64,000 nucleotides of DNA from Planktothrix tepida (GTDB taxonomy: Bacteria; Cyanobacteriota; Cyanobacteriia; Cyanobacteriales; Microcoleaceae), in assembly GCF_904830955.1 (NCBI RefSeq), contig NZ_LR882970.1, one strand, 5' to 3'. The notes under the pieces are model-generated. The model saw only the letters and a list, made by a program, of their open reading frames with translations. It was not told where the DNA came from and made no database searches. This document shows, one piece after another, positions 15,643 through 30,028 of the stretch. The stretch's first letter is position 1; each line of letters begins with the position of its first letter. Made by a program: the position numbers and the translations under genes.

Positions 15643-17469
15643 TTAAGGGGTATAAGTAACACCAAAATAAATTCCATCATCTTGAATATTATTGCCTCGA
15701 TCATCGATACCAATGAGGGGAAGACCATAATCAAGGCGGAGATTTAACCCGGAAACTGGTTGCCAAATTACGCCTAATCCTGCACCTGCTAAAAAGGTTT
15801 TACCAATAATCCGGTTGGGATTTCTGTCATTGTTCCAAACCCCACCAAAATCAATAAAGGGCGCTAGTTGAAATACAGGTTCAGAGTCTTGATTTCGATC
15901 TAGGGTAATTCGATCTTCGAGGGAAATCCGAAAGCCATTATCTCCAGCCCGGACGTTTTGACGATATCCTCTTAAAGATAAAGCTCCTCCAATCACAAAT
16001 TGCTGGGAAGGAAATAACGGATCAGCCGATAGTTGAATATCGCCTTGAGCAATTAATAAATTATCTTCCCCTAGTCGTTGTACCCGTTGGACTTGACCTA
16101 ACCAACTCAAAAAGGAAGCATTGGGTGTGCCGACATCCGTAGCGCCGAGAATATCTAAACCCAGGTTAAATTGCGATCGCAAAGCCCAAGCCCCTTCCGT
16201 ATCTCGAATCACATAATCTTGTCCAAACTTCAAAACACTGGTGCGCGTATACCCATTACTATCTGGCCCGGATGCAAAAGGTTCTCCGTTATTATCTAAA
16301 AGGGTTTGACTATCTTGATACGCAAAGCCAAAAGATAAAGCTAATTCAGCGATGGGGTTACGGATAATTGGCTGACGATAACTGATTTCATAGCGTTGAG
16401 ATTTTCCTTCAATATTCAACGCATCAAAGGGATCTTGAATAATGCGGTTTTGGTAAGGTTGGACTCGCAATTGTATAGTTCCGTTCATGGGGTTGATGGG
16501 AATGCTATACAAGGCGTCGATAATATCCGATTCACCATCCGCAATTAAACGAGTCGTATTGTAGGATAGTCCCAGAAAGTCTCCCCGACCTGTTAGGTTA
16601 AGATGACGCACACTAATTCCCATGCGTTCAGAACCGATGCTTGGGGGGGAATAGTTATCAATATTGAGACTCACCCCGAAAGGCGGTGCTTCTACCACTC
16701 GAACAATCAGAATACTTTGGCCTTCTTGGGTTCCCGCCCTTAAACTAGCTTCTACACTTTCAAATAAGGGATTAATGCGTAACAGTCGCAATTGATCTTC
16801 TAAGGAGGCCGTACTCAGGGGTTTTTCCGCGCCTAAACGAATGCGACTGGTGATATAGGACGGATGGAGGCGTTTGATTCCTTCAACTTCAATATTTTCT
16901 AAAGTTCCTTCAATGACCTGAATCTCGACAATGCCATTGTTAATCGTTTGTTCAGGAACAATTGCCCTAGAGGTAATGTAACCTCGTTCTAAATAAATCG
17001 CTGTAATTTTATCGGCGAGTTCCCGTAGTTCCGTCAGAGTCACAGAACGATTTTCTAGGGGGGTAACTAAGGTTTGAAGTTCCTCTGAAGTGAGAATTGT
17101 GCTACCTGTAACGTTAATTTTTTGAACGGGAATGGGGGTTTCATCTGTGGGTGGGTTCGGCGTTGGGCTAGGAGTGGGAGTGGGTTGTAACTCTGGGTTA
17201 TTGGGGGGTTCCGGTTTAGGCGGAATAGGAGGTCGTGGTAAAAATCGATCTTTGTTGGGATCGGGTTGGGGAACTTGGGGCGGAATATTAATTGATCCGC
17301 CTTGGGCCAAAGTCGGACAATTTTGGCGATCGCACAACTCCCCAGTCGCAGCAAAGGAACGAGTTTGAGAAAGACCTTGACGAGAAAATAGGGATAAAAC
17401 CAGCAATAGGGTACTGGTTAAAATCACTCCACACTGACGAAAATGAATCAGATTTTCACTCCTACCCAT
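15643..17469 (-). CDS. ShlB/FhaC/HecB-family two-partner-secretion transporter (TpsB, POTRA + 16-strand barrel)
   Basis: Signal peptide and Pro-rich linker, then the POTRA block INVTGSTILTSEELQTLVTPLENRSVTLTELRELADKITAIYLERGYITSRAIVPEQTINNGIVEIQVIEGTLENIEV, then a C-terminal beta-barrel ending in F/Y-x-F-like residues. Confidence 0.8.
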   Translation of the reverse strand: MGRSENLIHFRQCGVILTSTLLLVLSLFSRQGLSQTRSFAATGELCDRQNCPTLAQGGSINIPPQVPQPDPNKDRFLPRPPIPPKPEPPNNPELQPTPTPSPTPNPPTDETPIPVQKINVTGSTILTSEELQTLVTPLENRSVTLTELRELADKITAIYLERGYITSRAIVPEQTINNGIVEIQVIEGTLENIEVEGIKRLHPSYITSRIRLGAEKPLSTASLEDQLRLLRINPLFESVEASLRAGTQEGQSILIVRVVEAPPFGVSLNIDNYSPPSIGSERMGISVRHLNLTGRGDFLGLSYNTTRLIADGESDIIDALYSIPINPMNGTIQLRVQPYQNRIIQDPFDALNIEGKSQRYEISYRQPIIRNPIAELALSFGFAYQDSQTLLDNNGEPFASGPDSNGYTRTSVLKFGQDYVIRDTEGAWALRSQFNLGLDILGATDVGTPNASFLSWLGQVQRVQRLGEDNLLIAQGDIQLSADPLFPSQQFVIGGALSLRGYRQNVRAGDNGFRISLEDRITLDRNQDSEPVFQLAPFIDFGGVWNNDRNPNRIIGKTFLAGAGLGVIWQPVSGLNLRLDYGLPLIGIDDRGNNIQDDGIYFGVTYTP

Positions 17470-17681
17470 AAAATGCCTACTTTTGGTGAACGATGGGGTT
17501 GGTGGCTAACTAGGTTAAGTTTAGTTTAGATTAGAAAACAGGCAACAGTGAATAGGAGCGGAATTGAATACGGTCGAGATTAATGCAGACAACCCCCAAA
17601 AAATCGGGTTTCTGAAAAAAATATCTTGATTTTTCTCTCTAAAATTAGAGTCAAAAACTCGGTTTTTAGAGAGGGACTGAA

Positions 17682-18575
17682 TTAATTGATTTGAATTTTT
17701 AAAATAGGCGCATCAAGAATTGTCTGAGCTTTATTTTTTTCATTTTGAGTTTCTTTTAAAGCCGGATCAAAACCAATAGATTGTAAGAGTTGATTCCATT
17801 GATTTTTAATCGCTACATCTCTGGATTGTTCTAATCGTAAGCTGGCTAAAGTTGCAATTGTTTCATACCAAAGTCCCTGTTGAACATAGAGTTTAAGCTT
17901 TTCTAAGGGATCTTGAGTTTGCTCTAATTGACGTTTTTGATCATTCGTTAAAGTGGCTAAATTAATCCATCCACTTACAAGAATATCTTTTGAAGAATCA
18001 CTGACATCACATTTAATAGTCAGATACCAGCGATAATTTTTATCGTCTTCTAAAGTAATAAATTTAGAGTTAGGAGACCATTGAATTCCCACAATTCCAG
18101 GGCGATCAATATTGAGGGTAAAGGTGGTTTTATATAGGGTTTTATCGATTTCATCGGTAATTTCAAATTCAGTTACCTTTTGATCGAGTGTCCCTGGAAT
18201 ATAAAGAAAAAAGGCAGGTTGTTTTGACGCTGTGCGCCCCATTGTAGACTCTGGGATTAAGGCAGTCACTGGACTGGGACAATCTCCACCCCGAGTTCCG
18301 CCCCCTTCCCGACGCCCCGGTACACCCCGTTGAGGTGGGGTAAAGGCATTCCAATTCGTAAAGGGTGAATGACCCGTGGGCGAGGAGGGTTCAGAGTTCT
18401 GAGCCTTGTCCCCCTGTCTAGGAGTGATTCCCTGCTGTTCATCTCCCCCAAGAGGAGGTAAAGATGCTGAATGGGCGATGGGTACAATTAAACTATTGCC
18501 CAAAATGATTTGCAACAGTAACGTTAGTCCAAGTGTTGCACGGTGGAGGAAAAACATTGGCCTAGCCATAATCAA
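17682..18575 (-). CDS. Secreted protein, DUF928-like (family often paired with ShlB/FhaC genes in cyanobacteria)
   Basis: Signal peptide, a G/P/R-rich segment, then a conserved C-terminal ~180 aa (FFLYIPGT...YRWYLTIKCD...GWINL). The family assignment is from memory of the gene-neighbourhood pattern, not an alignment. Confidence 0.4.
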   Translation of the reverse strand: MIMARPMFFLHRATLGLTLLLQIILGNSLIVPIAHSASLPPLGGDEQQGITPRQGDKAQNSEPSSPTGHSPFTNWNAFTPPQRGVPGRREGGGTRGGDCPSPVTALIPESTMGRTASKQPAFFLYIPGTLDQKVTEFEITDEIDKTLYKTTFTLNIDRPGIVGIQWSPNSKFITLEDDKNYRWYLTIKCDVSDSSKDILVSGWINLATLTNDQKRQLEQTQDPLEKLKLYVQQGLWYETIATLASLRLEQSRDVAIKNQWNQLLQSIGFDPALKETQNEKNKAQTILDAPILKIQIN

Positions 18576-18772: not shown

Positions 18773-20476
18773 ATGACAATTTCTATGAATCTTAACTCAC
18801 CAACTTTGGGGCAAAATACGGGTTTTAAACCCCGGACAATTCGACCGATGGGGGTTTCTGCTTTATATGGGTTAATTGGGGTAGGAAATTCCTTATTTGC
18901 CGTTGATACCTTACGCGGATTTTTACTTAAAATTGACCCCAAAACCGATAATGCAACGGTGGTTAATCCTGATTTAACGTTAGCATTTAGAGATGTTACA
19001 GGGTTAGCGGTCTGGGAAAATACCCTTTGGTTTACTCGCGGTCGAGAAGTTTATTATTGTCCCCAAGTGATTGCAGGGAATTCTATTGTTAATCTTGAGC
19101 CTCTATTGTTTCTGGAATTACCTTATGCTGTCACCGGAATTGCGGTTTGGGAATCTACCCTTTATTTAGCTTGTGATCGACTGGCTTCTATCTTAGTTTA
19201 TAGTCGCAATACCCGACAGGAAATTACGCGCTTCCATTCCCCAGGAATTGGAGTAGAAAATCTCACGATTAAAAATGAGGAATTATGGGTTTGTGATCGA
19301 GAAGAACAAACGGTATATTGTTTAGAACGGGGAACGGGAGAAACGCGATTTAGTGTGTTAACACCGTTTGAATCTCCCACGGGATTAACCTTTTATACTG
19401 ATCCTGAAACGGGTGAGGAAGTTCTTTATGTTGCCTATGCTGGGGATGAGCTTTATATTCGAGATAATCCCAGTTCCTATGAACAATTTCAATTAGCAAA
19501 ACGCGATCGCACGTTTATCCATCCTCTCTATTTTCATTATAACGAATCCGAGCATTATGCTACATCTAATGGCTATTTGATCGAAATGTCTTATGTAGAA
19601 GAGTTAGAACCGTTAGATGCCGTTTACATTGAAGATTTAGAATGGCGAATTGCTTTACCGTCTAATACGAAACGGCAAAAAGTTGTGGAAGTGTCTTATA
19701 TTGGGATTCCCTTTAGGGAAGAAATTGAAGAGGGGGAAAAAGTCGCGGTTTTCAGATTTAATCCGTTAACTTCAACAGAACGTTTAATTTTTGGTTGGAA
19801 AGCGTTGTTAGAAGTTAGAAGTATTAAATATCAAATTAATCCTCGTCAGGTGGAAAATATTCCTCGTTTGTCACCGGATTTTCCCCAAAAATATTTAGTT
19901 GATGATGATCATTTAGCCATGAATACGGCTATTGTTCAAGAAGCCGCCCAAGCTGCGATTCGCAATGAAACTAATTTTTTACGGCAACTTTTAAGTATTC
20001 GCAATTATGTTTATGATCAGTTATCCTATAGTCTGACTTCTAAGATTGAAAATCCTGATGTGGTTTTGAAGCGAGGGATTGGTTCCTGTGGGGAATATGT
20101 AGGAGTTTTATTAGCTTTAGCCCGATTAAATGGCATTGCTTGCCGCACCATTGGACGGTATAAATGTCCGCAGTTTGCTGACCGTCGAGGGGTTTCTTTA
20201 GAACCTGAATATAATCATGTTTGGTTGGAATTTTATATTCCGGGTTTCGGTTGGGTTCCCATGGAATCTAACCCGGATGATATTCAAGAAGGGGGGCCCT
20301 ATCCGTTGCGGTTTTTTATGGGTTTAGCTTGGTATCATATTGAAATTGGCAAAGGAATCCGCTTTCAACGATTAACCAATCAAGGGGTTGATGTTGACCG
20401 AGAAAAAGTCTCTGTGGGTACTTTAGCAATTAATCATGTTCGGTTTACTATTTTAGATGAGTTACCTGCGGTTTAA
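18773..20476 (+). CDS. Transglutaminase-like (cysteine protease fold) domain protein with an N-terminal beta-rich domain
   Basis: C-terminal core GIGSCGEYVGVLLALARLNGIACRTIGRY...EYNHVWLEFYIPGFGWVPMESNPDD gives the Cys-His-Asp transglutaminase-like triad context. Confidence 0.72.
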   Translation: MTISMNLNSPTLGQNTGFKPRTIRPMGVSALYGLIGVGNSLFAVDTLRGFLLKIDPKTDNATVVNPDLTLAFRDVTGLAVWENTLWFTRGREVYYCPQVIAGNSIVNLEPLLFLELPYAVTGIAVWESTLYLACDRLASILVYSRNTRQEITRFHSPGIGVENLTIKNEELWVCDREEQTVYCLERGTGETRFSVLTPFESPTGLTFYTDPETGEEVLYVAYAGDELYIRDNPSSYEQFQLAKRDRTFIHPLYFHYNESEHYATSNGYLIEMSYVEELEPLDAVYIEDLEWRIALPSNTKRQKVVEVSYIGIPFREEIEEGEKVAVFRFNPLTSTERLIFGWKALLEVRSIKYQINPRQVENIPRLSPDFPQKYLVDDDHLAMNTAIVQEAAQAAIRNETNFLRQLLSIRNYVYDQLSYSLTSKIENPDVVLKRGIGSCGEYVGVLLALARLNGIACRTIGRYKCPQFADRRGVSLEPEYNHVWLEFYIPGFGWVPMESNPDDIQEGGPYPLRFFMGLAWYHIEIGKGIRFQRLTNQGVDVDREKVSVGTLAINHVRFTILDELPAV

Positions 20477-20802: not shown

Positions 20803-21882
20803 TTAATGAAATAAATGAATATTAAAATACAAGATTGCTAAATAACTAATCAGCCAAGCCCCTAAACTTAATTTAATCGTAGTATCTTGAATTAAAATGC
20901 GGCTGGGTTCTTCTCCTTCAGCTAAAACTGTAACTAACCATTTATAGTGCATTACGGCATAATAAACAATCGGGACGGTAATGACTAAAGAAGGATTTTT
21001 ACCCGATGTTATTGTAAATAAAGCATAACACATAATGGTCATTGTTGCTGTGCTATTGAGAAGAGAATCTAAATAAGGTAAGGTGTATTGAGAGAGAACT
21101 GGACGTTGTTGGTTTTTTCTTCCTCGTTGATAAAATAAGTGCAAATAAGAGCGTTCTAACGGTGCTGATTTTTCATGTTCTGGAGGTATATTTTCAGACT
21201 CTAAACTGTCTTGATGGTTTTGAAAATGCAAGAGAGATAAAAGTTCAGAACGTCGCTTAGAAAACCCTAAAAATAGAGTTAGAAAAAAGGTACATAAAAC
21301 AATCCAAGCCGTTGGCATATCTCCTAACGCATAGATTCCTGCTAATAGCCTTAACACAAACCCAAAGGCAATGCAATTCACATCAAATAAAGCTATATTT
21401 TTAAGTCTGAGAGAATAAGCAATATTATTAATGGCGTAAAGTAAAACACAAATTAATGTGGGAATTCCTAACGAATAAGCACCTAAAAACGAAAGCGTTG
21501 CTAAACAAAATGCGATCGCTAACCCCAGTTTAACTGAAACTTGACCACTCGCAAGGGGACGATACTTTTTTTTCGGATGCAGGCGATCGCGTTCTCGATC
21601 TTGAATATCATTAAAAATATAAATGGCTGATGCCATTGCTGAGAAGAAAATTACCGTTAATCCTGATAGCAAAATGCTCTGGGGTTGTAATAGTCTACCA
21701 CCAAACAAAAGTCCGGCTAAACAGAATAAATTTTTTGTCCATTGGTGGGGACGAAGAAGTTTGATTAGGGGGGGAAGGGTTTTAGATTGAGTCGATACAA
21801 ATAAAGGATCAGTGGTATCAGAAATTGTCTCTAATACAGAAGTAGAATCACCTGAATAATAATCTTGATTTGCTGGTTTCAT
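20803..21882 (-). CDS. UbiA-family prenyltransferase of the decaprenyl-phosphate 5-phosphoribosyltransferase type
   Basis: LRPHQWTKN near the N-terminus is the RPxQWxKN signature of Rv3806c-like polyprenyl-phosphate phosphoribosyltransferases. It also has two Asp-rich motifs (NDIQDRERD) and 8-9 TM helices. Confidence 0.75.
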   Translation of the reverse strand: MKPANQDYYSGDSTSVLETISDTTDPLFVSTQSKTLPPLIKLLRPHQWTKNLFCLAGLLFGGRLLQPQSILLSGLTVIFFSAMASAIYIFNDIQDRERDRLHPKKKYRPLASGQVSVKLGLAIAFCLATLSFLGAYSLGIPTLICVLLYAINNIAYSLRLKNIALFDVNCIAFGFVLRLLAGIYALGDMPTAWIVLCTFFLTLFLGFSKRRSELLSLLHFQNHQDSLESENIPPEHEKSAPLERSYLHLFYQRGRKNQQRPVLSQYTLPYLDSLLNSTATMTIMCYALFTITSGKNPSLVITVPIVYYAVMHYKWLVTVLAEGEEPSRILIQDTTIKLSLGAWLISYLAILYFNIHLFH

Positions 21883-21925
21883 GAATCCTTTAACTCCTCA
21901 CAGCTTACTTTAATGGTTTTTTATT

Positions 21926-22288
21926 TCAACGAGACATAATAACAATTCCAGCCACAATCAAGCTTAATCCTATCATTTGATTGATTCCAAACCGTTCTCC
22001 TAAAAATAAACTTCCCATGAATGCAACTAAGCTAAAACCAATAGCAGCAAAGACAGGATAAGCAATGGAAACGGGTAAGCGATCTAAGGCTTTAGCAAAG
22101 ACAATTAAGTTAATTCCATAGACGAGGATTGCAGCAATAAACCAAGGAGATAATAATAGAGTCAGTAAACTGGGATCAGGGGCTTCTAGTCGGGATTTTT
22201 TTAGTAATAAATTGCCAATTCCCGTGTTCATAGCCGCAATTAAAACTAAACTCCATGAAATCCAATTAGCTGAGTTAATATTGTTCAC
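21926..22288 (-). CDS. Small 4-TM DMT/SMR-like protein, ArnE/ArnF-like (lipid-linked sugar flippase subunit family)
   Basis: 120 aa. The EamA half-domain pattern is SIAYPVFAAIGFSLVAFMGSLFLGERFGINQMIGLSLIVAGIVIM. Confidence 0.6.
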   Translation of the reverse strand: MNNINSANWISWSLVLIAAMNTGIGNLLLKKSRLEAPDPSLLTLLLSPWFIAAILVYGINLIVFAKALDRLPVSIAYPVFAAIGFSLVAFMGSLFLGERFGINQMIGLSLIVAGIVIMSR

Positions 22289-22333
22289 GATTTGTTATTC
22301 AAATAGCTAAGTTAATCATTGTTAAAAATTAGT

Positions 22334-23359
22334 TTAGGAGAGTTGTTTTAACACCCAAAGTAATTTTTCTTTGACGGGGCGACGATGGGCTGAACCTGCT
22401 TTTTCCGCTTGCAGTTGATTATAGTTCTTTTGGAACCAATCATAACTTTCTCGGAACATTTCATCATTAGAATATTTGGGTTTCCAGCCGAGTTTTAGCA
22501 GAGGATCAACATCAAAATAAAATTCTTTGTGATAGGTTAAATAATGCCAAGGGGCGAGAGGACTTAACCCCATCCAGTCTAATAGTTGTAAAGTTCCAAT
22601 TGTTAGTCCAGTGGGTAAACTTTTAACTTGAGATTTTGTTCCTGCATATTCAATTAAATGTTCTAATCCTTCTCGTAACGTGCCAAAACGATCGGTTCCG
22701 ACATTATAGATTCCGGGTTGACCTAAATCAAGAGCAAGAAGATAGGCATCCATCAAATCATGAGCATGAACAAACTGAAATTTAACGTTACCACTTCCAA
22801 TCACATAAACATTCTTTCCTTCTTGAATCCATTCAAATAATATCTGAAAAATCCCTAATCTTCCTTCGCCTAAAATAGTTCGGGGACGAATCACAATTAA
22901 GGGTAAACCACCTTGATCACAAATCTCTCTAACCGCTAATTCTCCAGCTAATTTTGCCCGTCCATAAATCTCAACAGCTTTTGTCGGGGTATCGTTGGTA
23001 ATCGGACATTCAGCCTCTCCAAATAAAGCACTAGAACTCATGTGAATAAAACTTTTGACTCCGGCTTTTACGGCTTCTTCGGCGGCGATTTTGCTTCCTT
23101 CAACGTTGACCTCCCAGAATTTATTACCGGATTTTGTTAAGGGAACTAAAGCCACATTATGATGAACAATATCAATTCCTTCCATCGCTTTTGCAACCCC
23201 AGTGCGATCGCAAATATCACAGTTAATAAATTCAATTTCTGGGGGACGGGTCGGATCTTCCCAAATATCTAAAATTTTAACGTCTTCTCCCCGTTCATAT
23301 AATCGACGCGCAATTAAATTTCCTAAAAACCCTGATCCCCCCGTAATTAAGTGCTTCAT
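22334..23359 (-). CDS. NAD-dependent epimerase/dehydratase (extended SDR)
   Basis: ITGGSGFLGNLIARRL Rossmann motif and a YxxxK active site. Confidence 0.8.
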   Translation of the reverse strand: MKHLITGGSGFLGNLIARRLYERGEDVKILDIWEDPTRPPEIEFINCDICDRTGVAKAMEGIDIVHHNVALVPLTKSGNKFWEVNVEGSKIAAEEAVKAGVKSFIHMSSSALFGEAECPITNDTPTKAVEIYGRAKLAGELAVREICDQGGLPLIVIRPRTILGEGRLGIFQILFEWIQEGKNVYVIGSGNVKFQFVHAHDLMDAYLLALDLGQPGIYNVGTDRFGTLREGLEHLIEYAGTKSQVKSLPTGLTIGTLQLLDWMGLSPLAPWHYLTYHKEFYFDVDPLLKLGWKPKYSNDEMFRESYDWFQKNYNQLQAEKAGSAHRRPVKEKLLWVLKQLS

Positions 23360-23480
23360 AAAGTTCTGTTTGTCCTCAACACCATTTGTTTTTTCGTATC
23401 ATAAACGAAAGTTACCCATTCGTAAAGGTTAAACTCTAGGAACTTGATTAAAATAGTAAGTCGATACTAAGTTTATTTTT

Positions 23481-24047
23481 TTAGGTTGACAATTTAGAAG
23501 AAACCTTCCATACATAAAATCTAATTAAATCATACACTAAAGCCCCCCACTCGTAAACTAAATTAGCGGGCAAATAATGATAAAATAAAAGACGAAATGG
23601 CATTCTTCGATAGGCGAGTTCAGGATAAGAAGTAATAACTTCTTGGACGTTATAGCCACAGAGTTTAAACATTAACTGACTTCGTAAAGCATGGGGTTTA
23701 TTACAATATAAAATAACATCATCTAATGGCCATTTTTCTTGCTGTTCTAACCATTTTCTTAATAATCTAGCATTATCAAAAGTATCCAAATAGGGACGAT
23801 CTTTAACATTCTCAGGAACAATAACTTGGAGTTCAGGACGATAATGTAAAAGATATTTTGCAGCACACTGTTCTTCTGATTCAGGACAATCAAAGGAATT
23901 ACCCGGAGAAATAAAGACTTTTTCCTCAACAGAAACCTGCTTTAAAACTTGTTGTAAAACTGCTTCAAAATAATTGGATAAAAAGTAGTATTGGGCGAAA
24001 TCTTCCCGATAAACTAATCCTTCTGTTACGACAATATGGCTAACCAT
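23481..24047 (-). CDS. ElyC/SanA/YdcF (DUF218) family protein
   Basis: VFISPGNS...DTFDNARLLRKWL...ILYCNKPHALR matches the DUF218 core (SGG...T.eNA...VTS.hH). Confidence 0.62.
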   Translation of the reverse strand: MVSHIVVTEGLVYREDFAQYYFLSNYFEAVLQQVLKQVSVEEKVFISPGNSFDCPESEEQCAAKYLLHYRPELQVIVPENVKDRPYLDTFDNARLLRKWLEQQEKWPLDDVILYCNKPHALRSQLMFKLCGYNVQEVITSYPELAYRRMPFRLLFYHYLPANLVYEWGALVYDLIRFYVWKVSSKLST

Positions 24048-24049
24048 GA

Positions 24050-25114
24050 TTAATCTAATCCTCCATAATTTTCAAAAATCCAGGTTAAGCTTCTTCGCAT
24101 TCCTTCTTCTAAGGAAATTGTAGGGTGATACCCTAATTCTCGTTGAGCTTTAGCCACAGAACAAGCAATGGTTTTATTCATTTCTGAGAGAACATGAATT
24201 TTTTGATGATAGAATCCTAGAGCTTGTAATGTTCCATCTACCACGAAAGCAACTTCACTGGCTAATCCCGGTAATTTTAAGCGTTTATGGCTACAAGATT
24301 GGTTAAATTCTGTTTCTAATAATCGTTCAATGGTATCAATAATTTCATTCATAGAGTAGGGACGTTCATCGGCTATCCAATAAATTTCTCCATTGGCTTT
24401 TTCAGTAATTGCGGCTAATAATAATCCTTGACAAAGATTATCGACATAAGCCATTGACCGGAGATTATTCCCATCTCCAACAATCGGCCCTTTTCCATCT
24501 CGAATCATTTTAAAAAAGAGGGTTTGGCGTTGAGGTTGATGGAGGCCATAAAACCAAGGAGGACGGATAACAACGGTTTCAATTTCTCCCTGTTGCTGAT
24601 AGTTTTTAACTTCTAATTCCATCAGCATTTTTGAACGTCCATAGTTCATATAGGGATGATAGGGAGAGATTTCATCGAATAAATGATCAGGATGGGGATT
24701 ACAACCACAGGGAGAATTGGAAGAGACAATAATCGCTCGTTTTACACCTCTACAAATGGCAGAATTTAATAGATTTTTAGTTCCTTCTACATTAATTTGA
24801 TAAAAGTCTGATACTTTTTGCGGGTGAATAATTCCAGCCGTATGAAATAAAATAGCATTTTCGGCATTTTCACAAAAGCGATCGCAATCTTGGGGGTTTC
24901 TTAAGTCCCCTTGATAAACTTCAATTTGATCTGAGATCTTTTGCAATAGGGTTATATCTTGATTGGGTAAAATTAAACACCGAATTTTCAAGTTATTTTG
25001 AGGTTGATTTAAGGGTTCAAAATCGGGTAATCCTTTAACCAAAGATTCGACTAAACGAATCCCTAACCATCCTAATGCACCTGTTACTAAAATAAGGTTA
25101 GTTTTTAATTCCAT
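24050..25114 (-). CDS. NAD-dependent epimerase/dehydratase (extended SDR), second copy
   Basis: VTGALGWLGIRLVESL Rossmann motif. Separated from the DUF218 stop by 2 nt. Confidence 0.8.
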   Translation of the reverse strand: MELKTNLILVTGALGWLGIRLVESLVKGLPDFEPLNQPQNNLKIRCLILPNQDITLLQKISDQIEVYQGDLRNPQDCDRFCENAENAILFHTAGIIHPQKVSDFYQINVEGTKNLLNSAICRGVKRAIIVSSNSPCGCNPHPDHLFDEISPYHPYMNYGRSKMLMELEVKNYQQQGEIETVVIRPPWFYGLHQPQRQTLFFKMIRDGKGPIVGDGNNLRSMAYVDNLCQGLLLAAITEKANGEIYWIADERPYSMNEIIDTIERLLETEFNQSCSHKRLKLPGLASEVAFVVDGTLQALGFYHQKIHVLSEMNKTIACSVAKAQRELGYHPTISLEEGMRRSLTWIFENYGGLD

Positions 25115-25188
25115 AACTTTATTATTCTTTATTATGGTTATAGTTTAGCATTAATTAGGGATATAAGAGCTAAAAAAAGTAATTTTTT

Positions 25189-26646
25189 CTAAATTTTATT
25201 TAAGAATTTTAGCGCATTTCGACGAGCGATCGCCATAATTGAACCTTGAGGATTGACCCCTGGTGCGGTACACAGTAAACTAGCATCAGCAATATATAAA
25301 TTATTGAATCCATGAACTTTTCCAAAGGAATTAACGGCACATTTTTGTAAATTTTCTCCCATTGGACAGGAGGAAAAAACATGAACGGTCATTAGATTTG
25401 TTTGTTTTATCGGCAATTGTTCTGCTATTGTAGTTAAATCTTGGGGATGGGTCAAGGGAGAAGTATTAGAAATACTAGGATAGAGAATTTTAGCATCCGC
25501 TTCAAACAATAATAACGCTAATTTTTGTAAGGCTTCTGATAAATCTTTTAAATCTTGAGAAGTTAGTTTATAGCGAACTAAAGGATCATTATAAAAGGGA
25601 ATATTTCTGACTGTCCCAAAACTTTCCCCAGTAATCATAGCATAATAAATTGCCATGTTTTGCCAATGTTTTTTAACGGTTTCTGTATATTGAGGATGGT
25701 CAGTCATTCCCACCGATAAATAAGGGGGAGAACTAATCGAACATCCGAAACTAAATCGAGGAAAAAATTCTTTGACTTGATGAACAGGAACCCCCATATC
25801 TAAGGCGTTAATTTCTTGATCAAATTGAGCAATTATTTTAACGGTTGGGTGCATTTTTAAGGAGTTTCCAATATTATTTTTAATTCCGCTTCGTCTTAAT
25901 AACGCTGGAGTTTGAATTGCACCACAACAAACAAATACGGTTTCGGCTTGAATTTTAATCGGATTTTCTGGGATATTATTCCCTTGACGAGTTCCTGTTA
26001 AAATCCAAGTTTTATCTGTTTCTTTAAGGGTTTTAATCCGAGTGTTTGCTAAGAGTTTACAGCCAGCTTTTAAAGCTCTAGGAATAAAGGTTTTCGTCAT
26101 AGATTGTCGAGTTCCTTTGGGAACGGAAGTTTCATCAGATTCTTCATAACGAAACCATCGAGGAACTTCTAAAGATTGCCAACCTAAACGCATCGCACCT
26201 TCGTGTAATTTTAAAGATGCGGTTGGAGCTTTCCCCGGTAAATAACAGACGTTAACCGCTTGTTCACAGGCTTCAAAATGAGGGATTAAATCAGCTTCTG
26301 TTAAAGCATCTACTTCAAATTCTGTGCGCCATTGTTCTAAAATATTCAAGGGTGTTCGATGATAAAGTCCGCTATTAATTTCACTTCCTCCTCCGACACA
26401 TCGACCTTCAACATATTGAATTTTGGGTTGACCAAAGGCTGCGGTTAACCCCCCATTTCGGTATTTTTGTACCATTTCTTCAACGGAAAAGGGTTGACAG
26501 GATTCTAAGGGTAAATCGTCGCCTTCTTCTATTAATAAAACATCCCGTCCGGCTTCAGCTAATAAACAGGCGGTAATTGCTCCCCCAGGGCCAGAACCAA
26601 TGATAGCAATTTCAACTTTTAAATCACATTCTGAAGCTTGAAGCAT
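25189..26646 (-). CDS. GMC-family FAD oxidoreductase
   Basis: IAIIGSGPGGAITACLLAEAGRDVLLIEEG FAD-binding fingerprint and the C-terminal GMC signature GKVHGFNNLYIADASLLCTAPGVNPQGSIMAIARRNA. Confidence 0.85.
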   Translation of the reverse strand: MLQASECDLKVEIAIIGSGPGGAITACLLAEAGRDVLLIEEGDDLPLESCQPFSVEEMVQKYRNGGLTAAFGQPKIQYVEGRCVGGGSEINSGLYHRTPLNILEQWRTEFEVDALTEADLIPHFEACEQAVNVCYLPGKAPTASLKLHEGAMRLGWQSLEVPRWFRYEESDETSVPKGTRQSMTKTFIPRALKAGCKLLANTRIKTLKETDKTWILTGTRQGNNIPENPIKIQAETVFVCCGAIQTPALLRRSGIKNNIGNSLKMHPTVKIIAQFDQEINALDMGVPVHQVKEFFPRFSFGCSISSPPYLSVGMTDHPQYTETVKKHWQNMAIYYAMITGESFGTVRNIPFYNDPLVRYKLTSQDLKDLSEALQKLALLLFEADAKILYPSISNTSPLTHPQDLTTIAEQLPIKQTNLMTVHVFSSCPMGENLQKCAVNSFGKVHGFNNLYIADASLLCTAPGVNPQGSIMAIARRNALKFLNKI

Positions 26647-26657
26647 AATATTAATAA

Positions 26658-27035
26658 TCAGTTACTTGATGAATGAATTGACTCAGATTGCCAATATAAT
26701 ACCACTAGACTTTCATAAAATCGCATCACATCTCGACAAATTTGGTAGGGTGAATTTTTCCAAGTTTCAACTTGAAGTTTACGAATAGATGGGGACTGAC
26801 AATGAAAGAAGGAACCTCGACGAAGCAAACCCCAAAAATCAAAAATTAACGTTAATAAAAATAAGGGAAATTGTAGATAATCAGGCATTCGATTCTGTTG
26901 TTCTAAAACAAACTTAACAACAGAATTATGGGGAAATTTTAGGGGAGTACAATCGGCTGGAAAACGCTGATCAATTAAAGAATAACACAACGCAGAGACA
27001 GTATTCACAAACAGTTGTTGAATCATAGTTGACAA
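26658..27035 (-). CDS. Hypothetical small protein, cotranscribed upstream of the GMC oxidoreductase
   Basis: 125-aa ORF in an operon-like position, 11 nt from the oxidoreductase. No family recognised. Confidence 0.4.
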   Translation of the reverse strand: MSTMIQQLFVNTVSALCYSLIDQRFPADCTPLKFPHNSVVKFVLEQQNRMPDYLQFPLFLLTLIFDFWGLLRRGSFFHCQSPSIRKLQVETWKNSPYQICRDVMRFYESLVVLYWQSESIHSSSN

Positions 27036-27084
27036 TCCGGCTTACTTCATTTAAGATCTGGCAATGTTTTTATGATAATCTCGA

Positions 27085-28887
27085 ATGAACCTGCGTGCGC
27101 CATCTATTTCTACTCACATTCCTTTAATTATTTTATATCTAATCCCTCCCTTGGCAACGGCTTCGTTTATTCTTTATTATGGAGTCGATGTCCCTTATCA
27201 TGATCAATGGATATTACCTAATTTATTTGAGAAATTTAAAACCGGAACTTTACAATTTATTGATTTATTTAATTTACATAATTATCATCGATTAGTTTTC
27301 CCTAAATTAATTTTTTTGAGCTTAGGTTTAACGTCAGATTGGAATATTTATGCAGAGCTAATTTGCAGCTTTTTACTAGCAATTCTAACCTTTTTATGTC
27401 TTTATCAACTCTCCAAACTCACGAACCCTGCTCAACAAGATAACTTGTTTCATCTGACAAACCTGCTAACCAGTTTAGTGTTTTTTTCTTGGATTCAATA
27501 TCAAAATTGGCTTTGGGGATTTCAAGTTGCTATATTTTTAATTAATTTTTGTACTATTTTTGCTTGTTTATTATTGTCTTATCCTAAGTTTTTATCGACT
27601 AAATGGCAATATATTGGCTCGGCTATTTTATGTGGAATCGCTAGTTTTTCTTCGGCTCAAGGTTTAGCATCTTGGCTGGCTTTAATTCCCTGCGTTTTAG
27701 GGTTAGAAGGAAATTTGACTCAAAAGCGAAAGCGTCTCTTCGTTTGGATTTTATTATTTTTAATTTCTGTATATCTTTATTTCCTAGGTTATCAACCCGA
27801 TGAAGCGTTAAAAAATGATGCGTTTAAAAATAATCCTGATTTAGCTCAAAATCCTACTTTATTTTTAATTCATTTTCTATTTAATATTATTGCTTCTCCC
27901 TTAATAGGTTCCCTGCAATGGTCTTGGATTTTGGGTTTGATCATCCTTTGCTATTTCTTTTATCTCCTCTATGAACTGTTAATTAAAAATCCTCATCTCT
28001 ATTCTTTAACCTTTCCTTGGATATCCATTGGGTTATTTGGCTTGCTTTCAAGTGTTCTGATTGCCAAGGGACGCTATTATTTAGGCTCCGATTATGCTAT
28101 TTTACAAGGTTCTCGCTTTACCACTCATACTTTATTATTATTCGTCGCTATCTTTCAACTGAGTTTGATTTGGGTTCGCTTCAAACTTTCTGCTTTAGAC
28201 TTATTAAAGAATCAGGTAATTAATACTGTCCTAACCTATGGTGTGTTAGTCGGTATTGTAGGGATTTTAACAATATTGAGAGGGGAATATGCTGTTATTC
28301 AAGCAACGGATTTAAGTTTTTTCTTAAAGAGTGGTCAAACCTGTTTAACACTCATTGATTATCTGGAAGATTCTCCTTTTCTGAACACTTCAGTAGACAG
28401 TTGTTTAGTCAGAATTTATCCTGATGCTTCCTTTTTAAGACAGGAGGTAAAAAAACTAAAAAACTTACAATTAAGAACTTTTGCTGAAACAGTTCCTTTT
28501 GTATCTGACCCTAATTTAAAATATGGGTATCTTCATCCTTTACCCAATAATGAGCCTTTAGTCATTCGGCGCAAAATGCCGATGAGTTTAAGCGGGTGGG
28601 CAATTCTCCCAGATTCCCAACAACAACCTAATCTTATTTTTCTGTCCTATAATAATCAAAAATCCTTTTTTGCGAATGCTTATATTACAGTGGCTAGACC
28701 TGATATTGCTGAATTATTAAAATCAAAATCCTATACAAGAGCCGGATGGCAAATTGTTTTTTCAGGGGAATCTCTTCCTGTAGGCGAGAACAAGATTAAA
28801 GCCTGGGTTTATGATCCCAAACGTCAACAATTTATTCAATTAAATGGGGAAATTTCTGTAACCGTTAAACCCAAAAAGAAACCCTAA
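27085..28887 (+). CDS. Polytopic membrane protein, putative GT-C-fold glycosyltransferase
   Basis: ~12 predicted TM helices, then a ~200-aa soluble C-terminal domain. An acidic motif (YYGVDVPYHDQW) lies in the first extracytoplasmic loop, as in GT-C enzymes (ArnT/AftA/Emb-like). Assignment rests on architecture and context only. Confidence 0.45.
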   Translation: MNLRAPSISTHIPLIILYLIPPLATASFILYYGVDVPYHDQWILPNLFEKFKTGTLQFIDLFNLHNYHRLVFPKLIFLSLGLTSDWNIYAELICSFLLAILTFLCLYQLSKLTNPAQQDNLFHLTNLLTSLVFFSWIQYQNWLWGFQVAIFLINFCTIFACLLLSYPKFLSTKWQYIGSAILCGIASFSSAQGLASWLALIPCVLGLEGNLTQKRKRLFVWILLFLISVYLYFLGYQPDEALKNDAFKNNPDLAQNPTLFLIHFLFNIIASPLIGSLQWSWILGLIILCYFFYLLYELLIKNPHLYSLTFPWISIGLFGLLSSVLIAKGRYYLGSDYAILQGSRFTTHTLLLFVAIFQLSLIWVRFKLSALDLLKNQVINTVLTYGVLVGIVGILTILRGEYAVIQATDLSFFLKSGQTCLTLIDYLEDSPFLNTSVDSCLVRIYPDASFLRQEVKKLKNLQLRTFAETVPFVSDPNLKYGYLHPLPNNEPLVIRRKMPMSLSGWAILPDSQQQPNLIFLSYNNQKSFFANAYITVARPDIAELLKSKSYTRAGWQIVFSGESLPVGENKIKAWVYDPKRQQFIQLNGEISVTVKPKKKP

Positions 28888-28936: not shown

Positions 28937-30028
28937 ATGAAACCAGAAAATGAAATTATTTTAATCGGAGGCGGTTTAATCGGATTATCCCTAGCCGTTG
29001 AGTTAAAATTACGAGGGGCAACGGTAACCGTTCTAAGTCGAAATCAACAGGAAGCAGCAGGTTTAGTCGGGGCTGGAATGTTAGCTCCCCAAGCCGAACA
29101 AATTCCTCCTGGCCCCATGCTAGACTTATGTTTACGTAGTCGCGCCCTCTATAACGACTGGACACGCAAACTGGAGAAACTCACAGGATTAGAAACTGGA
29201 TATTGGCCCTGTGGGATTTTAGCCCCCGTTTATGAACGTCCCGACTCTACGACCTTACCCCAAACCCCAGATACACCGAGTTACTGGCTAGAACGAGAAG
29301 CGATTTTACAGCAGCAGCCGGGGTTAGGGGATGACGTTGTGGGGGGGTGGTGGTTTCCCCAGGATGGTCAAGTGGATAACCGTCGGGGGTTAGTCAAAAC
29401 CTTGTACAGGGCGGCTCAGGAATTAGGCGTTAAAATTATAGAAGAAATCACAGTCAAAACCTTAGTAACTTCCCCAGAAAAGGTAACGGAAATTATCACC
29501 AATCAAGGAAATTTTAGCGCCGATCATTATATTTTAACAACGGGAGCTTGGGCTGGAGACTTATTATCCATTCCCGTGTATCCCCGCAAGGGACAAATGT
29601 TATCCGTTCGAGTTCCTGATGATTTTGAACCCTTACCTTTAAAACAAGTTTTATTCGGTTCTAATATTTATATTGTCCCCCGTCGAGATGGTTTAATTGT
29701 GATTGGCGCGACATCAGAAGACGTGGGATTTACCTGCGGTTTAACCCCCAATGGTATTGAAACCTTACTCTCAGGAGCGATACGATTATATCCGATTTTA
29801 AAAGAGTTTCCCATTCAAGAATTTTGGTGGGGATTTCGACCGGAAACGCCTGATTTATTACCCCTATTAGGGCCGAGTTATTGGGACAATTTAACCTTAG
29901 CCGTCGGTCATTATCGCAATGGAATTTTATTGGCTCCGGTTACGGCTGAATTAATTTCTAATTGGGTTTTAGACGGACAATATGATCCTTTATTCGAGCA
30001 GTTTAGAAGCGATCGCTTTCACCCCTAA
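28937..30028 (+). CDS. thiO: Glycine oxidase
   Basis: IILIGGGLIGLSLAVEL FAD motif and overall DAO-family match, with the ThiO-specific C-terminal HYRNGILLAP block. Confidence 0.85.
   Translation: MKPENEIILIGGGLIGLSLAVELKLRGATVTVLSRNQQEAAGLVGAGMLAPQAEQIPPGPMLDLCLRSRALYNDWTRKLEKLTGLETGYWPCGILAPVYERPDSTTLPQTPDTPSYWLEREAILQQQPGLGDDVVGGWWFPQDGQVDNRRGLVKTLYRAAQELGVKIIEEITVKTLVTSPEKVTEIITNQGNFSADHYILTTGAWAGDLLSIPVYPRKGQMLSVRVPDDFEPLPLKQVLFGSNIYIVPRRDGLIVIGATSEDVGFTCGLTPNGIETLLSGAIRLYPILKEFPIQEFWWGFRPETPDLLPLLGPSYWDNLTLAVGHYRNGILLAPVTAELISNWVLDGQYDPLFEQFRSDRFHP

Follow-up and report, generated by a model that had tools for sequence, protein, structure and literature searches.

A candidate pathway for lipid-linked pentofuranose transfer in Planktothrix tepida, with a previously uncharacterised GMC/SDR module for its proposed remodelling

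Three-component systems consisting of a polyprenyl-phosphate 5-phosphoribosyltransferase (PPPRS), a flippase and a GT-C glycosyltransferase, with optional epimerases, have been shown experimentally to add ribofuranose (Ribf) or xylofuranose (Xylf) to O antigens (Kelly et al., PNAS 2024, PMC11127046). In Citrobacter youngae, the O antigen receives Ribf through a UbiA-type synthase to which a HAD phosphatase is fused, together with a flippase and a GT-C enzyme that has a C-terminal carbohydrate-binding module (CBM); ORF13, a short-chain dehydrogenase/reductase (SDR) of the cytoplasm, turns the donor into Xylf, and homologs of DprE1 and DprE2 are present where the product is arabinofuranose (Araf) (PMC11127046). 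Here, we describe a cluster of eight genes at positions 20803 to 28887 of a 64,000-nucleotide stretch of the Planktothrix tepida contig NZ_LR882970.1, hereafter termed the window. With moderate confidence, we read this cluster as a three-component-type system that attaches a pentofuranose, outside the cytoplasm, to a glycan of the cell envelope or the extracellular space, extended by a previously uncharacterised remodelling module. The scheme as a whole has precedents in other bacteria; the auxiliary module, made up of a GMC-family oxidoreductase, a small partner protein and two extended SDRs, is new.

The closest described counterpart is the system of Citrobacter youngae O1/O2 (ORF15-ORF14-ORF12 plus ORF13). 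Common to both are a PRPP (phosphoribosyl pyrophosphate)-using synthase of the UbiA type, a putative flippase of the small/multidrug type, a GT-C protein with a beta-rich C-terminus, cytoplasmic auxiliary SDRs changing the identity of the pentose, and a modular make-up in which auxiliary and GT-C genes come and go. Unlike its counterpart, the window synthase lacks the fused HAD domain, the flippase candidate belongs to the SMR instead of the MATE family, the host is a cyanobacterium, and the auxiliary set comprises GMC, a small partner and two extended SDRs in place of one SDR (Xylf) or DprE1/E2 (Araf). The likeness to the GT136-type GT-C of Kelly et al. is architectural only (a polytopic domain, an invariant Asp after the first transmembrane segment, TM1, and a C-terminal beta domain), the window GT-C having no detectable sequence relation to those family members that were compared.

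The mycobacterial decaprenyl-phosphate arabinofuranose (DPA) pathway (Rv3806c, Rv3807c, DprE1, DprE2, Rv3789, Emb/Aft) has a homologous first enzyme, provides with AftB the nearest structural neighbour of the GT-C protein, and follows a comparable logic, which leads from PRPP via lipid-P-ribose-5-P, dephosphorylation, keto redox epimerisation and flipping to transfer by a GT-C enzyme. It differs in that the window encodes an oxidase of the GMC fold rather than a VAO-type FAD_binding_4 protein, an extra small subunit, no PAP2 phosphatase, and two extended SDRs of about 340-355 aa rather than one classical SDR of about 250 aa; moreover, the carrier is presumably undecaprenyl and not decaprenyl phosphate. 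In further Gram-negative examples, the TfpW pilin D-Araf cluster of Pseudomonas aeruginosa Pa5196/PA7 and rhizobial HAD-UbiA/GtrA/DprE1/DprE2 clusters such as locus L085 (in our numbering of loci), the gene for a PPPRS likewise lies with those for a flippase-type protein, for redox enzymes and for large polytopic membrane transferases. Unlike the window, however, they encode true DprE1/DprE2 homologs and GtrA-type proteins, and their membrane transferases are without profile similarity to the 600-aa GT-C protein. A likeness to GtrA/GtrB/GT-C and YfhO-type systems that modify glycans with lipid-linked hexoses is seen in UniRef, which names some members of the 600-aa family 'YfhO family' or 'RgtA/B/C/D-like', and in a Gloeothece paralogue beside a GtrA_DPMS+GT2 gene, but the donor synthase of the window is a PRPP-dependent UbiA protein, not a GT2 enzyme.

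The UbiA homolog (20803-21882, minus strand, 359 aa) is supported as an Rv3806c-type PPPRS, its catalysis being predicted from homology and conserved active-site residues. It contains the sequence LLRPHQWTKN, an instance of the RPxQWxKN signature that aligns with IRPRQWVKN of Rv3806c, and scores 93.3 bits against the Pfam UbiA family. The NCBIfam models for decaprenyl-phosphate phosphoribosyltransferases give 229.7 bits (NF008977) and 183.2 bits (NF008978), while the best model outside the PRTase/HAD-UbiA group reaches 62.5 bits and those for heme o synthase (CyoE), ChlG and UbiA (4-hydroxybenzoate prenyltransferase) 38 bits or less. Rv3806c (8j8j/8j8k, E 8.6e-30) is its sole sequence match in the PDB. 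When the substrate-binding residues of Rv3806c (PMC10994848) were mapped via a HMMER alignment of the two proteins, 10 of the 12 residues for PRPP, the 5-phosphate, Mg2+ or the lipid phosphate proved identical (Rv3806c to window: R22 to R44, K28 to K50, Y70 to Y88, N73 to N91, D77 to D95, K87 to K105, R90 to R108, Y138 to Y156, K143 to K161 and K191 to K209). The other two are conservative changes, Q135 to N153 and Y157 to F175, and a Phe at Y157 occurs in some mycobacteria as well. Most of the mapped positions are invariant across 41 UbiA homologs. In Rv3806c, K28 and Y70 hold the ribose 5-phosphate and are not conserved in ordinary UbiA prenyltransferases (PMC10994848). By its NCBIfam scores, its PDB match and its binding residues, the protein groups with the phosphoribosyltransferases and not with the chlorophyll or quinone prenyltransferases, in agreement with an earlier assignment that was made from the letters of the window and which we call the sequence-only reading. 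PGAP labels some cyanobacterial homologs 'decaprenyl-phosphate phosphoribosyltransferase'; a tblastn search with the UbiA protein against phages returned a single match, in an unannotated 6.6-kb contig.

The proposed transferase (27085-28887, plus strand, 600 aa) is a polytopic membrane protein without any Pfam match, YfhO and PMT_2 included, at E <= 0.01, and likewise without a match in NCBIfam. Its AlphaFold2 model, calculated on 50 homologs, has a mean pLDDT of 91.9 and a pTM of 0.90; the arabinofuranosyltransferase AftB is the top structural neighbour, and AglB, ArnT and STT3 also rank at the top in Foldseek. Catalytic acids of GT-C enzymes lie in the first extracytoplasmic loop, and an Asp that is invariant among the homologs, Asp40, follows directly after TM1, in what the positive-inside rule would make the first extracytoplasmic loop. 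The predicted structure ends in a beta-sandwich (about aa 480-600) resembling FN3-like and CBM-type modules. The GT-C fold suspected by the sequence-only reading is thus borne out by the model, the structure matches and the conserved acidic residue, and we classify the protein by predicted fold as a GT-C glycosyltransferase, for which a pentofuranose donor and a glycan acceptor are suggested by its setting.

Close relatives of the cluster (L001, L002, L003 and L090) carry a ninth gene, which codes for a second GT-C-like membrane protein of 540-970 aa (L001 4676-6322, L002 6776-8407, L003 5215-8127, L090 7941-9569). It adjoins SDR1, with the DUF218 gene on its other side in L001-L003 and the SMR gene there in L090; at the corresponding site, the window has a bare spacer of 121 nt (23360-23480). 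The protein displays 'FLSDDF' after TM1 and an 'NPVGYHLTN' motif, has the look of a PMT/TMTC-type GT-C and has no Pfam match. It looks as though this strain has one GT-C and its relatives two.

The redox module consists of four genes on the minus strand. The GMC-family FAD oxidoreductase (25189-26646, 485 aa) exceeds the Pfam cut-offs for both GMC_oxred_N (109.6 bits) and GMC_oxred_C (66.4 bits). It shows the GSGPGG FAD motif at its N-terminus, and His422 and Asn465, at the usual catalytic positions of GMC enzymes, are invariant in 11 orthologs of 51-93% identity (51-63% across phyla). Cellobiose dehydrogenase, cholesterol oxidase and pyranose oxidase are among its distant relatives in the PDB. 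It has no signal peptide and starts straight with the FAD-binding fold, so that we read it as cytoplasmic; its proposed role is to oxidise a sugar hydroxyl of the lipid-linked pentose. SDR1 (22334-23359, 341 aa), an extended SDR of 3-beta-HSD/GalE-like type, matches the Pfam Epimerase family with 139.4 bits, carries the TGxxGxxG motif, and retains Ser108-110, Tyr132 and Lys136 in all of 11 orthologs (44-99% identity, 44-69% across phyla). NSDHL (6jkg, E 2e-20) and UDP-glucose 4-epimerases are its best PDB matches. SDR2 (24050-25114, 354 aa), also an extended SDR, has an OleD/dTDP-glucose-dehydratase-like fold (Epimerase, 100.8 bits; best PDB match 1r6d); Ser131/132, Tyr158 and Lys162 are invariant, and ortholog identity amounts to 59-94%, or 59-67% in the cross-phylum comparison. 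A 4,6-dehydratase function of SDR2 was considered and rejected, as no Asp-Glu follows the catalytic Ser.

The fourth member is a small protein (26658-27035, 125 aa as listed; about 115-125 aa in the family) with no sequence match in Pfam, NCBIfam or the PDB. A search of a library of 1.84 billion proteins, with the single window sequence as query, nevertheless gathered 443 representatives at E <= 1e-3, and in all loci the gene stands directly upstream of the GMC gene. Natural fusions in which the small domain is N-terminal to GMC exist (P0307, 618 aa; truncated P0295 and P0371), as does a fusion to a PMT_2 GT-C protein (P0359, 675 aa, in locus L091). Its AlphaFold2 model (pLDDT 92.9) is an all-helical bundle of five helices with no informative structural neighbour. 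The small ORF represents a genuine gene, from a family without a name; its true start may be Met4 of the listed frame. The idea that the protein is a 'hitch-hiker' subunit for twin-arginine translocation (TAT) was rejected, since the twin-arginine motif is absent and GMC begins with its FAD-binding fold.

The distribution of these genes was determined from a UbiA profile scan over one genome per GTDB species, which yielded 80 loci, and from six further UbiA loci found by exact-protein look-up; the eight window proteins were compared with all of them by tblastn. The order small-GMC-SDR2-SDR1-UbiA recurs in 11 loci. The cyanobacterial ones are the window, P. mougeotii (L001), an Oscillatoriales metagenome-assembled genome (MAG; L002), Limnoraphis (L003), Capilliphycus (L090) and Oscillatoria princeps (L088), and the others come from a member of the Verrucomicrobiales (L004), a Deltaproteobacteria MAG (L007) and unclassified metagenome bacteria (L005, L084 and L089). 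A recurrence of this extent in several phyla is far beyond chance, and it confirms the co-occurrence on which the grouping had been made to depend. The affiliation of UbiA, the GT-C fold and the co-occurrence of the genes, the three points at which the sequence-only reading saw itself as vulnerable, were all examined, and all three came out in its favour. Its eight-gene unit is real in this strain, all ORFs having been found at their coordinates and on their strands; the conserved core, however, comprises five genes, with SMR, DUF218 and GT-C being accessory or variable.

In a rough neighbour-joining tree, the cassette-linked UbiA proteins all fall into a single clade, of which 11 of 15 members have the cassette, as against none of about 70 outside. 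UbiA, SMR and GT-C lie within 8 kb of each other in the window, and the same trio is found in L001-L003, L088, L090 and, as a minimal version, L082. The last of these, from Microcoleus vaginatus WJT46-NPBG5 (L082 9669-13095), is an SMR-UbiA-HAD-PMT_2 operon without redox genes, its UbiA being 68% identical to that of the window. It is apparently a complete three-component system of the ribofuranose type in a cyanobacterium, and from this operon it follows that the window's UbiA clade operates in such systems in cyanobacteria. Related loci lie among genes for exopolysaccharide (EPS) or O-antigen production (Wzz, Poly_export, Wzy_C, GT2/GT4).

A DprE1/DprE2-like pair flanks UbiA in 15 other loci (L009, L010, L013, L014, L018, L023, L025, L026, L035, L048, L050, L075, L078, L080 and L081), and is never found together with the GMC cassette. 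These loci, usually with a HAD phosphatase, belong to Betaproteobacteria, Gammaproteobacteria, Chlamydiales and Vicinamibacteraceae MAGs and are candidates for Araf-type systems that would be widespread outside the Actinobacteria. The rhizobial plasmid locus L085 (R. leguminosarum pR132503) combines HAD-UbiA, GtrA, FAD_binding_4 and adh_short with two membrane proteins in the canonical DprE1/DprE2 arrangement. Its DprE1/DprE2-like proteins have no tblastn match in the cluster, and profile comparison revealed no relation between the 600-aa family and the two membrane proteins adjoining DprE1/E2. The GMC module may act like the DprE1/DprE2 pair without belonging to that family.

Taken together, the proposed pathway would start at the cytoplasmic face of the membrane, where UbiA, judged by homology and its active-site residues, is predicted to move 5-phosphoribose from PRPP onto a polyprenyl phosphate, presumably undecaprenyl-P. 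The 5-phosphate would then be removed, either by the DUF218 protein or by a phosphatase encoded elsewhere; one of the two must act, because no gene of the HAD, PAP2 or metallophosphatase type is present here. Cytoplasmic GMC, together with its small partner, may next oxidise a hydroxyl of the ribose to a keto group, and the two NAD(P)-dependent extended SDRs may reduce or re-epimerise it, so that polyprenyl-P-ribofuranose would become another pentofuranose. This remodelling step is suggested by the linkage of the genes, the intact catalytic residues, the fusions of the small protein and the mutual exclusivity with DprE1/DprE2. In the simplest case, its product would be the 2'-epimer Araf, as made by DprE1/DprE2, while the second SDR may add an inversion at 3' that leads to Xylf or lyxofuranose (Lyxf). 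The SMR protein would flip the lipid-linked sugar, and the GT-C protein, with Asp40 as putative catalytic residue and its carbohydrate-binding-like C-terminal beta domain, would transfer the sugar to an acceptor.

Two of the accessory proteins assigned a step in this scheme are encoded on the minus strand. The SMR-family protein (21926-22288, 120 aa, four transmembrane segments) is a candidate polyprenyl-P-pentose flippase and matches Pfam Multi_Drug_Res with 46.5 bits (cut-off 23.7). It had been described as ArnE/F-like, of which the flippase-type reading remains reasonable given its superfamily, but not an equivalence to ArnE or ArnF: it scores 34.3 bits against ArnE (cut-off 92) and 26.6 bits against ArnF (cut-off 99), and it is encoded by a single gene, whereas ArnE/ArnF form a heterodimer of two SMR-like subunits. 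An SMR gene is found next to UbiA in the loci of cyanobacteria, the minimal L082 among them, and of Verrucomicrobiales. The DUF218-like protein (23481-24047, 188 aa; ElyC/SanA/YdcF-type) matches PF02698 with 26.6 bits, the cut-off being 27.6, and its orthologs in L001 and L090 are likewise 'weak' DUF218 matches. The gene is limited to some Oscillatoriales loci (L001, L002, L003 and L090), and its orthologs share invariant SEE, DTFDNA and PHALRS motifs. By inspection without an alignment, these resemble the Thr/His/Glu triad that was proposed for SanA (PMC12176290). Its position and the family's genetic links to undecaprenyl-linked glycan flux make it a candidate for the missing 5-phosphatase or for another lipid-carrier step. 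Pfam and NCBIfam detect no HAD, PAP2 or Metallophos domain in the eight proteins; among the relatives, phosphatase genes occur in L004 and L082 (HAD) and in L084 (Metallophos).

Several observations count against the pathway as we propose it. The UbiA scores stay 4 bits below the cut-off of NF008977 (229.7 versus 234) and below that of NF008978 (183.2 versus 207), and the protein carries an insertion of about 45 aa at approximately aa 215-258. The insertion is hydrophilic (…LLHFQNHQDSLESENIPPEHEKSAPLERSYLHLFYQRGRKN…), interrupts the match to Rv3806c so that two stretches are left, and is confined to the UbiA homologs of 340-370 aa of the Oscillatoriales, relatives of about 290 aa being without it; this clade-specific insertion is probably the reason why the score falls just under the NCBIfam cut-off. 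A tblastn search of the whole 64-kb window found no HAD or Metallophos homolog; a recognised phosphoribose 5-phosphatase is absent, and L088 and L089 are also without one. Neither the GMC protein nor either extended SDR is related to DprE1 (VAO-type FAD_binding_4) or DprE2 (classical SDR), and a possible epimerase role consequently rests on context. Two conserved SDRs are more than a simple 2'-epimerisation needs, the invariant second one suggesting additional chemistry. In a twelfth module locus, L091 (8001-13579), GMC, SDR2 and SDR1 come after the small-PMT_2 fusion, GT2, GT4 and Wzy_C genes are nearby, and no UbiA gene lies within 8 kb, which implies that the substrate of the module may not be limited to a sugar derived from phosphoribose. 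No acceptor-glycan or polysaccharide genes are located near the cluster in the window.

The GT-C protein adds to these difficulties. Its gene is transcribed divergently from the rest of the cluster; among the homologs beside the cassette, those in L001, L003 and L090 are divergent, that in L088 is co-directional and that in L002 lies within the operon. The GT-C protein has no detectable homology to the large membrane proteins that adjoin the cassette in loci from outside the cyanobacteria: profile comparisons were negative for those of L005 (YfhO-like), L089 (493 aa) and L084 (474 aa), and likewise for the second GT-C-like protein (548 aa) found in P. mougeotii. Furthermore, two paralogues with 35-44% identity adjoin other donor synthases, one in Gloeothece verrucosa PCC 7822 (CP002198.1, L087 8523-11650) next to a GtrA_DPMS+GT2 lipid-sugar synthase, and one in a Planktothrix agardhii-type contig (L086 10001-14405) next to rmlC/rmlD/rmlA-like and GT2/GT4 genes. 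The family thus pairs with different lipid-linked donors; it is apparently a general cyanobacterial family of glycan-modifying GT-C proteins with several paralogues per genome.

The identity of the sugar can be narrowed in different ways. The exact model of the sequence-only reading is one sub-case of the pentofuranose reading that we favour, with polyprenyl-P-D-arabinofuranose as product, GMC as the analogue of DprE1 (2'-oxidase), one SDR as that of DprE2 (2'-keto reductase), and transfer by GT-C in the manner of TfpW or Aft. The GMC cassette and the DprE1/DprE2-like pair share a niche beside PPPRS genes in a mutually exclusive fashion, AftB is the best structural match of the GT-C, and oxidation of secondary hydroxyls in sugars is common among GMC enzymes, the distant matches including pyranose oxidase and cellobiose dehydrogenase, all of which fits this model. 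We nevertheless hold it only tentatively, as plausible but on the unlikely side, since neither GMC nor the extended SDRs are homologous to DprE1/DprE2 and the model leaves one of two conserved SDRs without a task. The presence of three redox enzymes instead of two speaks for a different product, namely D-lyxofuranose or xylofuranose, or else a lipid-linked tetrofuranose, for which GMC would oxidise C5' to a uronic acid, SDR1 would carry out an oxidative decarboxylation and SDR2 would reduce the resulting keto group. NSDHL (6jkg, E 2e-20), the nearest solved relative of SDR1, is a decarboxylating 3-dehydrogenase, and primary alcohols are substrates of many GMC enzymes, choline dehydrogenase and hydroxymethylfurfural (HMF) oxidase being two of the matches; a single SDR (ORF13) suffices for the conversion of ribose to xylose, and Lyxf would need both inversions (Kelly et al., PMC11127046). 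This proposal is doubtful, however, as it comes from chemical reasoning, no motif separates decarboxylating from non-decarboxylating extended SDRs here, and neither lyxofuranose nor tetrofuranose has been reported in bacterial glycans, with no Lyxf found in any solved carbohydrate structure (PMC11127046). A bolder version appears improbable to us: that the module is a non-homologous substitute for DprE1/DprE2 which makes a lipid-linked sugar donor new to biology, and that the GT-C adds this sugar to the sheath, EPS or lipopolysaccharide in filamentous cyanobacteria as well as in certain Verrucomicrobiota and Deltaproteobacteria. Candidates for such a donor are polyprenyl-P-D-lyxofuranose, inverted at C2' and C3', or a tetrofuranose that arises through 5'-oxidation and decarboxylation.

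Other explanations separate the module from the sugar or the sugar from the lipid. UbiA, SMR and GT-C could form a plain ribofuranose system, with GMC, the small protein and the SDRs acting elsewhere, for example on the precursor of the acceptor glycan, on the polyprenyl carrier or on an isoprenoid lipid such as a hopanoid, and being linked to UbiA only through an envelope structure that both serve. Families that act on lipids do turn up among the matches of both SDRs (HpnA, OleD and SdmB from NCBIfam, 3Beta_HSD from Pfam), though the NCBIfam matches are all far under the cut-offs; the C-terminal matches of GMC are cholesterol-oxidase-like; and the two parts can occur apart, L091 having the module without a nearby UbiA and L082 a member of the UbiA clade without the module. 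We consider this quite unlikely, given that 11 of the 12 loci have the module next to a UbiA of the PPPRS type, with all these UbiAs in one clade, that it is exclusive with DprE1/DprE2, and that the small protein is fused to a GT-C in one genome. Phosphoribosylation of a soluble or non-polyprenyl acceptor reportedly occurs with BtrL in butirosin biosynthesis. By analogy, UbiA might modify a soluble or non-polyprenyl acceptor and the cluster make a small ribosylated natural product that is exported by the SMR pump. SMR proteins are classical drug exporters, and the low GC and patchy distribution of the cluster would suit such a function, but the conserved lipid-phosphate-binding residues (Rv3806c K28, Y157 and K191), the association with GT-C, the polysaccharide genes in relatives and the lack of scaffold-forming biosynthetic genes render it hardly credible.

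In terms of novelty, the sequence-only reading had stated that no such pathway is described in cyanobacteria. Full-text searches indeed found no cyanobacterial description; the pathway type itself, however, is defined in Kelly et al. (PMC11127046), and PGAP already names cyanobacterial homologs. Searches for literature on furanosidic pentoses in cyanobacterial EPS, on cyanobacterial decaprenyl-phosphate phosphoribosyltransferases and on GMC enzymes linked to DprE1-type chemistry brought up only Kelly et al. and the paper on the Rv3806c structure as directly relevant work, and full-text searches for the GMC/small/two-SDR module gave no description of it. If confirmed, the pentofuranose pathway proposed here would extend the three-component scheme to cyanobacteria and provide a third, widely distributed way to remodel lipid-linked ribose, beside DprE1/DprE2 and the single SDR ORF13. 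Pentoses are unusually common in the exopolysaccharides and sheaths of cyanobacteria, and the EPS of Nostoc commune is said to carry a ribofuranose side chain. The pathway would offer a genetic handle on pentose addition in bloom-forming Planktothrix and related Oscillatoriales, and for glycoengineering it would supply new enzymes for lipid-linked pentofuranose donors. A DprE1-independent route would also bear on the evolution of the epimerases and on inhibitor specificity.

The borders of the cluster can be placed at about 20.8-28.9 kb, because the flanking genes are unrelated to it and one flank varies between the closest relatives. On one side lie ShlB/POTRA, DUF928 and transglutaminase-like genes, and on the other DAO and FHA; the GT-C gene starts about 50 bp from the small ORF, on the opposite strand. 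The DAO gene (28937-30028) was considered as a member and rejected, for it is not conserved beside the cassette outside Planktothrix-like genomes. In tblastn, each of the eight proteins shares 88-99% identity with its counterpart from P. mougeotii L001, in accordance with an organism close to Planktothrix mougeotii. One flank differs among these relatives, being alike in the window and the Oscillatoriales MAG L002, whose outer flanks are as in the window, and different in L001. In addition, the GC content between positions 20000 and 29000 is 0.33-0.37 in the cluster versus 0.41-0.46 in the flanks. The low GC and the differing flank would be consistent with a cassette that is mobile or was exchanged horizontally. 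On the upstream side of the cluster, at positions 15643-18575, the window encodes an outer-membrane protein of the ShlB/FhaC two-partner-secretion type (608 aa, with a Pro-rich N-terminal region) together with a DUF928 protein, and the same pair stands beside the cluster of L002.

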